Positions 12,837 to 14,525 of a DNA stretch of 64,000 nucleotides are shown here, one piece after another (position 1 is the first letter of the stretch; each line of letters starts with the position of its first letter). A model generated the notes under the pieces. That model was not told the DNA's origin. It saw only the letters and a program-made list of their open reading frames with translations, and made no database searches. A program made the translations under genes and the position numbers. This DNA comes from a bacterium (GTDB taxonomy: Bacteria; Babelota; Babeliae; Babelales; JABGSX01): NCBI GenBank assembly GCA_018647505.1, contig JABGSX010000006.1:245-64244 (forward strand), given 5' to 3'.

Positions 12837-14525
12837 CTAACGATAACGACTATCTGAAAAAACATTTTCAGGAGAAGCTTTTAAAACTCGCAAAATTTCT
12901 CCAGTTTCAGCATCGCCAACCAACTCAGAACAAACACGAGCATCATCTTGATCAATCGGAAGCAAAGCATGACCCTGAACAATAAGATTATAAATTTTCA
13001 GATCTCGCAACCAAGAACCCTTGAGTTGGCATAAATTATTTTCTATCATTTTTAGAGTAGGATAAACTCCGTTTAGAGCCTTAAACGTCATAAGATTTAT
13101 TCCTGGCATCCACGCTGAAACAACAGGCTCATATTCAGGCTCTGGAAATGAACGAATCAAGTATTTTTCATTCTCCGTACTATAAATTTTGTGAGAAGTT
13201 TTATCTTTCAATCGCCCCCAATGAACATTTTTTATAGCATCTTTTTTACGCTCAATAAGATAAGTATTGGAAAGCATTCCAGGAGCTGTGTGCCGAAACT
13301 CTTTTAAAGCAATTGTCCCCTTGGAAAATAAATAATCATTTAAATTTTTCAAGTCTTTGGTGCCTGTTGCACGCACATCTCCAACAGGAGGAACTTCGAT
13401 CAAAATTTTATCTCCAAGCTCCAAAATTGCATCGACAGCCTTTTTCCAATTATCTCCAAACCAATGAACAACAGACATTGCTAATACAATATCAAAATGC
13501 TCACACTCTCCAAGGCGACGCAACTCTTCGATACTTATTGTTTTGTTCAGAAACACAATATTGCTCAGATTGTTAAGAACACATAAATCAAACAAATGCC
13601 TGCTTGCTTCAATCATAACAAAAACAGAATCCTTGAATTTTCTTGCAAGTCTAAAAGATAAGTAGCCCTCTGCAGCACCAATGTCCAAAACTGTAACAGG
13701 CCGATTGTAACCATCAACAATATCTTTTATAAATTCATACCGACCTTCACAAGAGCGATCGCCGTTTTTCCCTGTAACATTGTTTATAACAACATCTTGA
13801 TAAATTCCCTTATCTTGACACATATACGCCTTTGACATCCCAAATTCAGCATCTACATTGCCAGGATCAAGGTCCAAAACTTTTCTATAAAATGCTATTG
13901 CCCAAACATAATCCTTTTTTTCTGCGAACAAAAATCCTAAATGATACAAAGCAGAAATATTGTTAAAATCTCGCTTTAAAACTTTTTCATAAGACTCAAT
14001 AGCCTTATCAACCTTTCTTTGCATTCTATGCGTATGGCCCAACTCCAAGTAAATAGGCACAGGGTTTTTGGATAGCTTAGCAGCAATTGAAAGACTCTCT
14101 ACCGATTCTTCATACCTATCCAAGCCTCTCAAAACAACCGCTTTGCCAAACAAGGCATCTACATTTTCTGGTTTGATCTCCAAAGATAACTCAAAAAACT
14201 CTAAAGCCTTTCTGTAATCGTTTTTACATTTGTACTGCTGCGCCAAAAGCAATAGAATATTAAAGTCTTCGGCACCACGACCAACAGAACGGGATAAATA
14301 CTTAATCGCTAGATCAGAACGACCCTTTTCAGAATAAGCCAGACCAACCTCAAACAAAAGTTTTTGTTCTGCCTTTTGCCCAAGACCACCAAGCGAAATT
14401 TTATCATGCAAACCATCCAAAATCATATCATTGCAACTTTGTACAAACGCGCTTCCGAATAAGACCCCCTGGCTCACAAGACTGCTAATCACACACAAAG
14501 ATAAAAATACAATATTTTTTTTCAT
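12837..14525 (-). CDS. Secreted TPR-repeat / SAM-methyltransferase fusion protein, paralog 2 of 4
   Basis: 562 aa. Signal peptide, TPR units, VLDIGAAEGYLSFRLA / VFVMIE, C-terminal MPGINLMTFKALNG and RDLKIYNLIVQGHALLPIDQDD. Confidence 0.8.
   Translation of the reverse strand: MKKNIVFLSLCVISSLVSQGVLFGSAFVQSCNDMILDGLHDKISLGGLGQKAEQKLLFEVGLAYSEKGRSDLAIKYLSRSVGRGAEDFNILLLLAQQYKCKNDYRKALEFFELSLEIKPENVDALFGKAVVLRGLDRYEESVESLSIAAKLSKNPVPIYLELGHTHRMQRKVDKAIESYEKVLKRDFNNISALYHLGFLFAEKKDYVWAIAFYRKVLDLDPGNVDAEFGMSKAYMCQDKGIYQDVVINNVTGKNGDRSCEGRYEFIKDIVDGYNRPVTVLDIGAAEGYLSFRLARKFKDSVFVMIEASRHLFDLCVLNNLSNIVFLNKTISIEELRRLGECEHFDIVLAMSVVHWFGDNWKKAVDAILELGDKILIEVPPVGDVRATGTKDLKNLNDYLFSKGTIALKEFRHTAPGMLSNTYLIERKKDAIKNVHWGRLKDKTSHKIYSTENEKYLIRSFPEPEYEPVVSAWMPGINLMTFKALNGVYPTLKMIENNLCQLKGSWLRDLKIYNLIVQGHALLPIDQDDARVCSELVGDAETGEILRVLKASPENVFSDSRYR

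Follow-up and report, generated by a model that had tools for sequence, protein, structure and literature searches.

What are the roughly 135 residues that end four neighbouring proteins of this locus, and what might they do beside the methyltransferase that precedes them? In the window (the whole stretch of 64,000 nucleotides that was analysed), four co-directional tandem ORFs span positions 10975-18468 of the minus strand. Their products, P1 to P4, share a layout of a hydrophobic N-terminus, TPR, a weak class I methyltransferase match, and about 135 C-terminal residues; P2, P3, and P4 show 33-39% identity to P1. The earlier note, made from the letters of the window, proposed that the methyltransferase may be fused to a minimal kinase-like or nucleotide-binding domain. 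Our analysis supports the kinase-like option by five independent lines: profile comparison, hhalign, Foldseek, Pfam scans, and the placement of predicted strands. The coordinates of all features are collected in the table below.

Features of the four tandem paralogs, given as positions in the window
Feature	Position	Strand	Basis
P1 (paralog 1, 617 aa)	10975-12828	minus	ORF, Pfam TPR and Methyltransf_31/25, paralog alignment
P2 (paralog 2, 562 aa), gene to which the earlier note pointed	12837-14525	minus	ORF, Pfam, paralog alignment
P3 (paralog 3, 608 aa), protein used for modelling	14546-16372	minus	ORF, Pfam, paralog alignment
P4 (paralog 4, 603 aa)	16657-18468	minus	ORF, Pfam, paralog alignment
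P2 SAM-binding motif I (RPVTVLDIGAAEGY)	13662-13703	minus	Aligned to WbdD RPLNVLDLGCAQGF
P2 block 1 (NTYLIERKK), last methyltransferase beta-strand, outside the kinase-like domain	13242-13268	minus	WbdD alignment and model
P1 putative mini-kinase domain, residues ~478-617	10978-11397	minus	HMM match W1/478-586; K, D, N, D present
P2 putative mini-kinase domain, residues ~429-562	12840-13241	minus	Family C-terminal HMM match W2/426-554; WbdD kinase homology
P3 putative mini-kinase domain, residues 466-608	14549-14977	minus	AlphaFold of the domain alone and Foldseek
P4 putative mini-kinase domain, residues ~464-603	16660-17079	minus	HMM match W4/464-594; K, D, N, D present
Block 2 (W.PGINL.TFK.LNG..PT)	P1 11203-11259, P2 13056-13112, P3 14774-14830, P4 16885-16941	minus
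P2 block 2 WMPGINLMTFKALNGVYPT, putative hinge equivalent	13056-13112	minus	Aligned to WbdD hinge WLVMEKLPGRLL, low confidence
Block 3 (D....N[LF]IVQG..L..ID)	P1 11098-11151, P2 12951-13004, P3 14669-14722, P4 16780-16833	minus
P2 block 3 DLKIYNLIVQGHALLPID, catalytic-loop and DFG equivalent (D508, N513, D525)	12951-13004	minus	Aligned to WbdD D351, N356, D369
Invariant Lys, proposed beta3 (VAIK) equivalent, P2 K454	13164-13166	minus	Lys in 242 of 251 members
Invariant Lys equivalents	P1 K506 11311-11313, P3 K497 14882-14884, P4 K492 16993-16995	minus

The genes were considered in their surroundings. Their neighbours in the window encode HMG-CoA synthase, thiolase, a DUF35-type protein, HMG-CoA reductase, gyrB, and tilS. 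They thus include genes of the mevalonate pathway, and no glycan gene cluster was found around P1-P4 in the window, nor was an ABC-transporter-dependent O-antigen cluster (wzm/wzt/glycosyltransferase) found beside them. The gene order around P2 recurs in several metagenome assemblies. P1 is annotated in other assemblies as a 591-aa form, with the start placed after the hydrophobic segment. In the NCBIfam scan of the whole P1-P4 proteins, TPR matches and weak methyltransferase matches were obtained, and no others. Judging by their sequences, P1-P4 are probably exported modular enzymes; signal-peptide-like segments were called from hydropathy alone.

The identity of the methyltransferase was established with a profile of 96 homologs, which was compared with PDB sequences. 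The domain is homologous to the methyltransferase of WbdD (hmmsearch E 1.5e-10 over WbdD 25-228, chain numbering), a bifunctional methyltransferase-kinase that adds methyl-phosphate to terminate the polymannose O antigen. WbdD was the sole strong match, and the next PDB match had an E-value of 3e-3. A 708-aa WbdD was also rebuilt from frameshifted assembly DNA, and its motif positions agree with the published N356 and D369. With the WbdD methyltransferase as a query, only truncated WbdD-like proteins were found.

The three sequence blocks described earlier are present in all four paralogs, and RDLKIYNLIVQGHALLPIDQDD (P2 residues 507-528) was found exactly at 12942-13007. The range 12840-13270, in which the feature had been placed, corresponds to P2 residues 419-562. 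The pattern given for block 1, N[TL]YL[IV]E..K, holds for P2-P4 but not for P1, which reads TIYLVETKK. This block had been counted with the kinase side. We assign it to the methyltransferase, as its last strand, because it aligns with the WbdD methyltransferase strand 'RPMYLVSNH'; in the AlphaFold model of the P3 fragment, it forms a predicted strand (model residues 179-186) straight after the Rossmann core. The distance from block 2 to block 3 had been put at about 30 residues. We measured ~18 residues between block 2 and the Asp of block 3, and ~36 from start to start. Block 2 is the best-conserved signature of the family, its W, G, N, and P varying little or not at all among 251 aligned members. 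The sharing of blocks among P1-P4 reflects only their paralogy, and the above-chance signal is the conservation across a large family.

Evidence for a kinase relationship was sought at the level of profiles. In the full-length hhalign comparison, the family aligned with WbdD 6-430 over 339 columns with a probability of 98% and an E-value of 7e-14. The alignment is collinear, and its second stretch places the family's 'hnDlapwNlIlqGnklalID' onto WHDDVRPWNVMVDARQHARLID of WbdD, which comprises the catalytic loop and DFG. The C-terminus alone, aligned with the WbdD kinase domain, gave a P-value of 6.9e-5 and a score of 33.4, which is ~9.7 sd above the mean of the shuffle control (n=100, mean 12.1, sd 2.2, max 20). 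In single Pfam scans of 53 C-termini, the families recurring in more than one member were APH (10), RIO1 (6), Choline_kinase (3), and TCAD9 (2). All these matches are sub-threshold, and all the families are kinase folds or, in one case, probably kinase-like. The best of the 10 APH matches reached an E-value of 1.3e-3, below the Pfam gathering threshold (PF01636; choline kinase PF01633). The C-termini of P1-P4 themselves (~135 residues) had no Pfam match even at E<=10, and the C-terminus-only HMM searched against PDB sequences gave only chance matches (BamB, viral polyprotein; E>0.6) and no kinase. One further APH match, in protein P0095, was rejected as evidence. It is located in a separate N-terminal fragment, upstream of the methyltransferase of that protein, and therefore says nothing about the C-terminal domain.

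The fold was examined with models of P3. The AlphaFold model of residues 280-608, which comprise both domains, had a pLDDT of 93.6 and a pTM of 0.93, and the C-terminal domain modelled alone had a pLDDT of 92.3. Foldseek placed WbdD at ranks 1-4 for the two-domain model (348-388 aligned columns, E 2.8e-12). In the case of the C-terminal model, the best 50 matches among 350,542 PDB chains were all protein kinases, but they were weak, with E-values of 0.1-0.36 and TM of 0.3-0.47. Against a viral library, Foldseek matched the methyltransferase domain and nothing beyond it. The predicted strands are arranged as in kinases, in that beta7 starts right behind the Asn and beta8 ends right ahead of the second Asp.

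According to the models, the mini-domain would keep a three-stranded remnant of the N-lobe with an invariant Lys (P3 K497), followed by a hinge-like W-x-P-G-I-N-L block and two short helices. It also keeps the catalytic loop D....N, the beta7-beta8 hairpin, a putative Mg-binding Asp, and two C-terminal helices. The Gly-rich loop, strand beta4, and the majority of the C-lobe helices have been lost, as has helix alphaC together with its Glu. The stretch that joins the N-lobe strands to the hinge block has no predicted helix, and in the full-length hhalign alignment WbdD 255-275, including E274, falls opposite a gap. The earlier observation that a Gly-rich loop is lacking was borne out by the family alignment, in which the segment before the strands is variable, gapped, and without a conserved Gly. 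The region had also been described correctly as short for a full kinase; at ~130 aa, it is about half of one. P1-P4 end 35-45 residues past the DFG-equivalent Asp, where the model has two short helices and no coiled-coil ruler.

The residues expected of a kinase active site were then counted in the 251 aligned members: Lys is present in 242, the first Asp in 233, Asn in 239, and the second Asp in 235. The complete Lys-Asp-Asn-Asp set was found in 225 of 238 members and in P1-P4 (in P3, K497, D551, N556, and D568). The loop spacing of PKL folds is kept in P1-P4, the Asp and Asn being five residues apart and the Mg-binding-type Asp following ~12-13 residues later. In the WbdD paper, N356 and D369 bind or coordinate Mg-ATP, and E274 is among the Mg-coordinating residues. 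The earlier note saw no clear VAIK lysine. An invariant upstream Lys does exist; it starts the second strand of the N-lobe remnant and is aligned with WbdD K252, in a low-confidence region of the full-length hhalign alignment. The D-x-K lysine, previously taken as a sign of an HRDLK loop, fared otherwise, and we rejected it as a mark of a Ser/Thr-kinase loop because its column is variable across the family. The loop consensus of the family, H-x-D-x-x-P-[WN]-N, agrees with the loops of WbdD and APH. The loop His, two residues before the catalytic Asp, is kept in 186 of the 251 members and lost in all of P1-P4, as are the loop Pro and Trp.

The family is large. With the C-terminal profile, at least 718 clusters at 50% identity were matched at E<=1e-3 among 1.84 billion representatives. 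The C-terminal domain is covered by neither a Pfam nor an NCBIfam model, and members are named, where a name is given, 'methyltransferase', 'DUF6165 family protein', or 'hypothetical protein'. A word-indexed homolog search with the same profile returned eight proteins, all of them family members. In phages and prophages, the copies lie between the genes for capsid and tail and are followed directly by a GT1/GT4 glycosyltransferase. In MAGs of Chlorobi, Verrucomicrobia, and Acidobacteria, the module is part of proteins of 1600-2350 aa that also contain GT4, TPR, and, in four of five, GT2; copies in Zhengella and Anaerolineales adjoin glycosyltransferases. Signal-peptide-like N-termini were called by hydropathy in 65 of 100 classifiable members. 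Such N-termini, together with TPR or LRR repeats, are found in the copies from Dependentiae and Chlamydiae MAGs. Both groups are intracellular symbionts. The closest relatives of P1-P4 come from Dependentiae, Babeliales, and Simkaniaceae MAGs and are without a glycan-gene context. A literature search for methyltransferase-kinase-TPR proteins in Dependentiae found nothing relevant.

The best explanation of these sequence comparisons is that the mini-domain and its methyltransferase share their ancestry with WbdD of E. coli O9a, all going back to one methyltransferase-kinase module. The C-terminal domain is very probably a true homolog of the kinase fold. We favour, with moderate confidence, a description of P1-P4 as a signal-like segment, TPR, a WbdD-type methyltransferase, and a pared-down kinase-like domain of ~130 residues that would take part in phospho-methyl capping as in WbdD. 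By analogy, a capping function of this type is likely; the more specific proposal that the two domains form an active phospho-methyl transferase pair with a glycan as substrate is tentative, its chances being put just short of even. What the analysis itself demonstrates is the homology, the architecture, the conservation of residues, and the genomic associations; the mechanism is inferred. In such a reaction, the mini-kinase would move the gamma-phosphate of ATP to an acceptor hydroxyl, most likely of a sugar at the terminus of a glycan, as in WbdD. The adjoining methyltransferase would methylate this phosphate to give a methyl-phosphate cap, and choosing or holding the target would fall to the TPR array. 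Since P1-P4 look exported and their closest relatives belong to intracellular symbionts, the target may be located on the cell surface or in the host. If the exported proteins were periplasmic, ATP and SAM would be lacking unless a host compartment is reached.

ATP binding by a domain of this size is conjectural, and the bolder claim that it has catalytic kinase activity, serves secreted symbiont and phage glycan capping, and is thereby much smaller than any other functional protein-kinase-like domain appears rather unlikely. It would have to work without alphaC, without a Gly-rich loop, and with little of the C-lobe, which might be possible because the rigidly packed methyltransferase would supply the scaffold. 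The phosphorylated acceptor would then be channelled straight to the SAM site; the secreted TPR- or LRR-guided versions of Dependentiae and Chlamydiae would put methyl-phosphate on host or surface glycans, and the phage module would cap virion glycans. About equally doubtful, in our estimate, is a kinase-derived relic that performs no phosphorylation and serves as a lid, a substrate-binding module, or a nucleotide/phosphate sensor for a lone methyltransferase, which would methylate a pre-existing phosphate, or a hydroxyl or carboxyl. The loss of about half of the kinase fold and of the loop His, Pro, and Trp in P1-P4 is in line with a relic. So is the position of the strongest conservation, which lies in the hinge-like WxPGINLxTF...GxYP block, not in the catalytic residues, and fits a binding or interface role. 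The pTM of the two-domain model would likewise imply rigid packing on the methyltransferase, and WbdD of serotype O8 works with the methyltransferase only. However, K, D, N, and D stand at exact kinase spacing in ~95% of 238 diverse members, and no sampled member shows their systematic loss. Such retention would be surprising if the domain neither catalysed a reaction nor at least bound a Mg-nucleotide.

It is improbable that P1-P4 are secreted effectors whose mini-kinase phosphorylates Ser, Thr, or Tyr of a host protein picked by TPR (LRR in relatives), with the methyltransferase modifying the same or another protein. Common signal-peptide-like N-termini, the fusion of some members to TPR or eukaryote-like LRR arrays, the symbiont origin of the closest relatives without glycan genes, and the expansion into tandem paralogs would suit an effector, as would the D-x-K-x-x-N loop of P2 and P3, which resembles that of Ser/Thr kinases. 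Against this, family members do not conserve the D-x-K lysine, the nearest characterised homolog, WbdD, phosphorylates a sugar, members outside symbionts are tied to glycosyltransferases, and an activation loop and a substrate-docking C-lobe are absent. Least probable by a wide measure is a chance motif match, in which the last ~130 residues would extend the methyltransferase or form a small alpha/beta domain of other ancestry. The failure of the C-terminal HMM to find a kinase in the PDB, the silence of Pfam on the window sequences, and Foldseek E-values above 0.1 for the isolated domain would be expected of such a match. It is contradicted by the hhalign score far above the shuffles, the collinearity with WbdD over both domains, the exclusively kinase nature of the best 50 Foldseek matches, the recurrence in Pfam of kinase folds or a probable kinase-like family and of no others, and the kinase-like placement of the strands around the Asn and Asp.

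If active, the mini-domain would define a minimal core for phosphotransfer by the kinase fold, made of three strands, a hinge, a catalytic loop, and the DFG Asp, and would give a large family both a name and a testable activity, which it currently lacks. The family distribution points to methyl-phosphate capping beyond the few enterobacterial O antigens where it is known, with phage virion modules near glycosyltransferases, giant glycan-assembly proteins, and signal-peptide-bearing, repeat-fused tandem copies in protist symbionts. The family also provides candidate effectors of the poorly understood Dependentiae.

WbdD (E. coli O9a / Klebsiella O3; PDB 4AZS, 4AZW) has the same order of domains, the methyltransferase being followed directly by the kinase. 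At the family level, the catalytic loop H-x-D-x-x-P-W-N and the subsequent L-I-D are found at equal spacing, and many family members share its association with glycosyltransferases. The WbdD kinase, however, is larger (~250 aa) and possesses alphaC (E274), the complete C-lobe, and a Gly-rich loop (Y230-AGAG), whereas the domain of the present family has ~130 aa and none of these. WbdD carries a long C-terminal coiled-coil ruler with a membrane-binding end and has no signal peptide or TPR; in P1-P4, an N-terminal signal-like segment and TPR are present and the coiled coil is absent. The domain orientation in the P3 model also differs from that in WbdD (rmsd ~19 Å over the joint Foldseek alignment). 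The wbdD gene (L009/L010) follows wzm and wzt, whereas P1-P4 are not beside wzm/wzt or mannosyltransferase genes.

RIO, Bud32, Kdo kinase, HopBF1, and the APH/choline kinases resemble the mini-domain in the D....N loop and the Mg-binding Asp ~12 residues later, but they keep alphaC and a helical C-lobe, which it does not, and have at least ~200 aa. RIO, Bud32, Kdo kinase, and HopBF1 have sizes of ~200-260 aa. Compared by description, Lcin_0519 of Legionella, an amoeba-dwelling intracellular bacterium, likewise unites kinase and methyltransferase in a single polypeptide; it was annotated bioinformatically as an effector and proposed to modify LPS (PMC9758233). Its family is distinct from WbdD, with only remote kinship according to its authors (PMC9758233). 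The N-terminal terminator of ORF6 of Klebsiella pneumoniae O7, also compared by description, has a methyltransferase followed by a database-invisible, AmiN/APH-like kinase within a large multi-module glycan-assembly protein (PMC11231755). This kinase is closest to AmiN and unlike WbdD in sequence and structure (PMC11231755), whereas that of the present family resembles WbdD and is far shorter. ORF6, with its unannotated 223-aa kinase, makes a methyl-phosphate cap in vitro, and the D441A substitution abolishes phosphorylation (PMC11231755). It shows that cryptic methyltransferase-kinase pairs exist and are active.

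Four co-directional ORFs of the window encode TPR-methyltransferase paralogs (P1-P4), with intergenic gaps of 8 bp (P1-P2), 20 bp (P2-P3), and 284 bp (P3-P4). P2, P3, and P4 are 35%, 39%, and 33% identical to P1, respectively. All four gave strong TPR matches and weak class I methyltransferase matches, the latter limited to the initial portion of the Rossmann fold, and each N-terminus is basic, then hydrophobic, resembling a signal peptide. For P1 (N-terminus at window 12751-12828) the signal peptide is less sure than for P2-P4, because other assemblies of the locus call a 591-aa protein from Met27, past the hydrophobic segment. 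The last ~135 residues of P1-P4 had no Pfam match even at E ≤ 10, and NCBIfam added nothing to the Pfam annotation. The gene order of the locus recurs in several metagenome assemblies, and the closest relatives are 40-45% identical. Directly downstream of P1, after a 90-bp gap, lies a co-directional mevalonate-pathway set (window 7074-10884), which we take to be archaeal-type; such a set is unusual in a bacterium of about 36% G+C. Any functional tie between it and the paralogs might, for instance, run through polyprenol carriers.

Coordinates of the paralogs, the neighboring mevalonate-pathway genes, and selected homologs at other loci (L numbers)
Feature	Position	Strand	Remark
P1	window 10975-12828	minus	ORF, 617 aa
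P2	window 12837-14525	minus	ORF, 562 aa
P3	window 14546-16372	minus	ORF, 608 aa
P4	window 16657-18468	minus	ORF, 603 aa
HMG-CoA synthase	window 9850-10884	minus	mevalonate-pathway set beside P1
Thiolase	window 8699-9853	minus	mevalonate-pathway set beside P1
DUF35/zf-ChsH2 OB-fold protein	window 8281-8745	minus	mevalonate-pathway set beside P1
HMG-CoA reductase	window 7074-8339	minus	mevalonate-pathway set beside P1
Phage/prophage-module members	L001 10001-12117; L002 10001-12108; also L003-L005, L035		~310-320 aa, without signal peptide
Giant module protein	L037 5548-10359		without GT2 and DUF4214
Giant module protein	L040 5734-10758		GT4, TPR, GT2, DUF4214
Giant module protein	L048 5674-11310		GT4, TPR, GT2, DUF4214
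Giant module protein	L039 4972-11013		GT4, TPR, GT2, DUF4214
Giant module protein	L038 2390-9448		GT4, TPR, GT2, DUF4214

The methyltransferase and C-terminus of P3 were used as a query, and 120 homologs were retrieved, the majority of 300-400 aa and without TPR. Where the source names them, they are called methyltransferases, "DUF6165 family protein", or "hypothetical protein". Alignment of 96 homologs gave the C-terminal consensus K...W-x-P-G-I-N-L-x-T-F-x-M-L-N-G-x-Y-P...H-x-D-x-x-P-x-N-x-I-x-Q-G-x4-L-I-D-x-x-D, with a conserved loop of the form H-x-D-x-x-P-[WN]-N. A profile of the C-terminal domain alone matched 718 clusters among 1.84 billion representatives at E ≤ 1e-3 (606 at E ≤ 1e-10). 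Among the best 150 clusters, the domain nearly always starts ~170-240 residues into the protein, and thus directly after the methyltransferase. No model in Pfam or NCBIfam covers it, and a literature search found no published description of this methyltransferase/mini-kinase family.

Of 251 aligned members, 242 keep the Lys (K497 in P3), 233 Asp551, 239 Asn556, 237 Gly561, and 235 Asp568 (P3 numbering); the complete K-D-N-D set is present in 225 of 238 members and in P1-P4. The His column (His in 186/251) holds A, A, L, or G in the window paralogs. The block W-x-P-G-I-N-L-x-T-F...G-x-Y-P (window 13056-13112 in P2, with counterparts in P1, P3, and P4) is conserved more strictly than the catalytic residues (W 247, G 251, N 246, and P 251 of 251 members). 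The hinge and alphaD region of kinases is normally variable. The block is a candidate acceptor site or methyltransferase interface.

The earlier note had described three motif blocks behind the methyltransferase core, and these were located at the expected positions; the third, RDLKIYNLIVQGHALLPIDQDD, is P2 residues 507-528 (window 12942-13007). The pattern of block 1 fails for P1, which reads TIYLVETKK; the blocks are otherwise present in all four paralogs. In the full-length profile alignment, block 1 (NTYLIE..K) matches the last methyltransferase strand (PMYLVSNH) of WbdD, the E. coli O9a methyltransferase-kinase. The emphasized D-x-K lysine falls in a variable column of the 96-homolog alignment.

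AlphaFold2 with the family alignment modeled P3 280-608 at a mean pLDDT of 93.6 and pTM of 0.93, and the C-terminal 143 residues alone at 92.3 and 0.85. Beyond the final strand of the methyltransferase, the predicted order is three beta-strands and the W-x-P-G-I-N-L block, then two short helices followed by the D....N loop, a pair of strands, and two C-terminal helices. In the model, the invariant Lys opens the second of the three beta-strands, the Asn directly precedes the first strand of the pair, and Asp568 directly follows the second one. This predicted order is that of kinases (alphaE, catalytic loop, beta7, beta8, DFG); the model has no helix at the alphaC position. In a Foldseek search of the PDB with the two-domain model, four WbdD entries ranked on top (E 2.8e-12 to 1.2e-9), with 348-388 aligned columns, whereas every other methyltransferase aligned over about 200. 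The joint rmsd to WbdD was about 19 Å, so the mutual orientation of the domains differs. The isolated C-terminal model had no PDB match at E ≤ 1e-3; its best 50 of 350,542 chains were all protein kinases or UbiB-type kinases (E 0.1-0.36, TM 0.3-0.47). When 53 C-termini were compared singly with Pfam, the only recurrent families were APH (10), RIO1 (6), Choline_kinase (3), and TCAD9 (2), all others being singletons. Among viral models (BFVD), a 401-aa protein of the amoeba-infecting giant virus Megavirus courdo11 (K7YUZ4, named "methyltransferase domain-containing protein") aligned with the two-domain model over 387 columns and may be a two-domain relative; most remaining viral matches covered only about 200.

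At the sequence level, a single-sequence query already matched WbdD best among PDB sequences (E 0.008, methyltransferase region only). The 96-sequence profile reached E 1.5e-10 over the entire WbdD methyltransferase, the next match being at 3e-3. A second collinear HMMER stretch, non-significant alone, placed "hnDlapwNlIlqGnklalID" on WbdD WHDDVRPWNVMVDARQHARLID. The WbdD structure paper assigns residues 1-210 to the methyltransferase and 211-459 to a eukaryotic-type kinase, whose ligands for the two ATP-bound Mg ions are N356, D369 (the DFG Asp), and E274. In two metagenome assemblies (L009 and L010 3001-5126), wbdD itself is frameshift-split after residue ~325, called in L010 as ORFs of 338 and 351 aa, which is probably why only truncated WbdD proteins appeared in the homolog search. 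For an independent test of the C-terminal domain, the 708-aa WbdD was reconstructed from assembly DNA with the frameshifted gene, and its motif positions agree with the published numbering. The C-terminus-only profile aligned by hhalign with WbdD 211-475 across helix alphaE, the catalytic loop, and DFG (score 33.4, P 6.9e-5), versus a mean of 12.1 (sd 2.2, maximum 20.0) for 100 shuffled targets and 13.2 for the reversed sequence. The full-length profile aligned with WbdD 1-480 over 339 columns (WbdD 6-430; probability 98%, E 7e-14). In its low-confidence N-lobe part, FYKIESSFDTKSL stands opposite RYFFGEDYVCKFF, therefore pairing P3 K497 with WbdD K252; a gap faces WbdD 255-275 (alphaC and E274), and "W-----PG" faces the hinge "WLVMEKLPG".

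A scan of species-representative genomes found the module chiefly in Dependentiae/Babeliales (TM6), Simkaniaceae and other Chlamydiae MAGs, and MAGs labelled "uncultured Pseudomonadota", with further copies in Acidobacteriota, Verrucomicrobia, Chlorobi, Anaerolineales, Zhengella, and Desulfovibrio. Dependentiae copies are located among housekeeping genes. An N-terminal hydrophobic segment occurs in 65 of 100 classifiable members. TPR fusions include the window paralogs and the homolog P0025. In P0161, P0190, and P0206, the hydrophobic segment is followed by an array of eukaryote-like leucine-rich repeats (LRR) replacing TPR. In these proteins, profile positions about 163-205 are missing from the methyltransferase, and the mini-kinase is intact (e.g., HSDFLPWNMIIQGNNLELID). 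Babeliales members (P0014, P0017, P0018, P0023; L006/L007 8001-9527) carry an extra DUF6165 domain behind the mini-kinase. The three genes ahead of the module gene in L006/L007 (349-388 aa, two with faint TPR matches) may be additional paralogs.

Phage/prophage structural modules contain forms of ~300 aa that lack the hydrophobic N-terminus (P0084, P0086); the assembly collection has 46 blocks with P0084. These copies have an HK97-type capsid gene on one side and tail genes on the other and overlap the start of a GT1/GT4 glycosyltransferase, which suggests modification of virion glycans. In five MAGs (Chlorobi, Verrucomicrobia, Acidobacteria), the module is embedded in 1603-2352-aa proteins with GT4 and TPR domains, four of which also carry GT2 and DUF4214. 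Glycosyltransferases adjoin the module gene in Zhengella and one Anaerolineales MAG.

The profile, AlphaFold, Foldseek, and Pfam results jointly favor a reduced kinase fold, as the earlier note had tentatively proposed, none of the structural scores being strong by itself. The most fitting explanation of the mini-kinase is that it descends, in greatly shortened form, from the kinase half of a WbdD-type module. A chance resemblance, which the weak Foldseek E-values of the isolated domain would allow, is less likely, given the hhalign score far above the shuffled controls. As the chief alternative, the domain would be a non-catalytic relic assisting the methyltransferase; the missing alphaC helix would fit it, and the family-wide K-D-N-D set speaks for catalysis or at least Mg-nucleotide binding. 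A protein-kinase effector role, compatible with the exported-looking formats, is also less likely, the glycosyltransferases linked to members outside the symbionts pointing to glycans. The shortened-kinase reading would have the domain phosphorylate a hydroxyl, probably of a sugar, after which the methyltransferase would methylate that phosphate. This would be the likely activity, given the family-wide retention of the Lys and catalytic Asp together with both Mg-binding residues, the glycosyltransferases that accompany the module outside symbionts, the WbdD mechanism, and the Klebsiella O7 precedent, where a database-invisible kinase makes a methyl-phosphate cap (PMC11231755). In this reading the ~130-aa domain would bind ATP, its acceptor would probably be a sugar, and the exported-looking TPR-bearing window proteins may act either on the surface of the bacterium or in a host. 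Enzymes of this kind are already known, namely WbdD, which terminates polymannose O antigen with methyl-phosphate, the Klebsiella O7 ORF6 terminator, and Legionella Lcin_0519; new here are the halved size of the kinase domain, the formats with a signal peptide, TPR, or LRR in protist symbionts, and the copies in phage virion modules.
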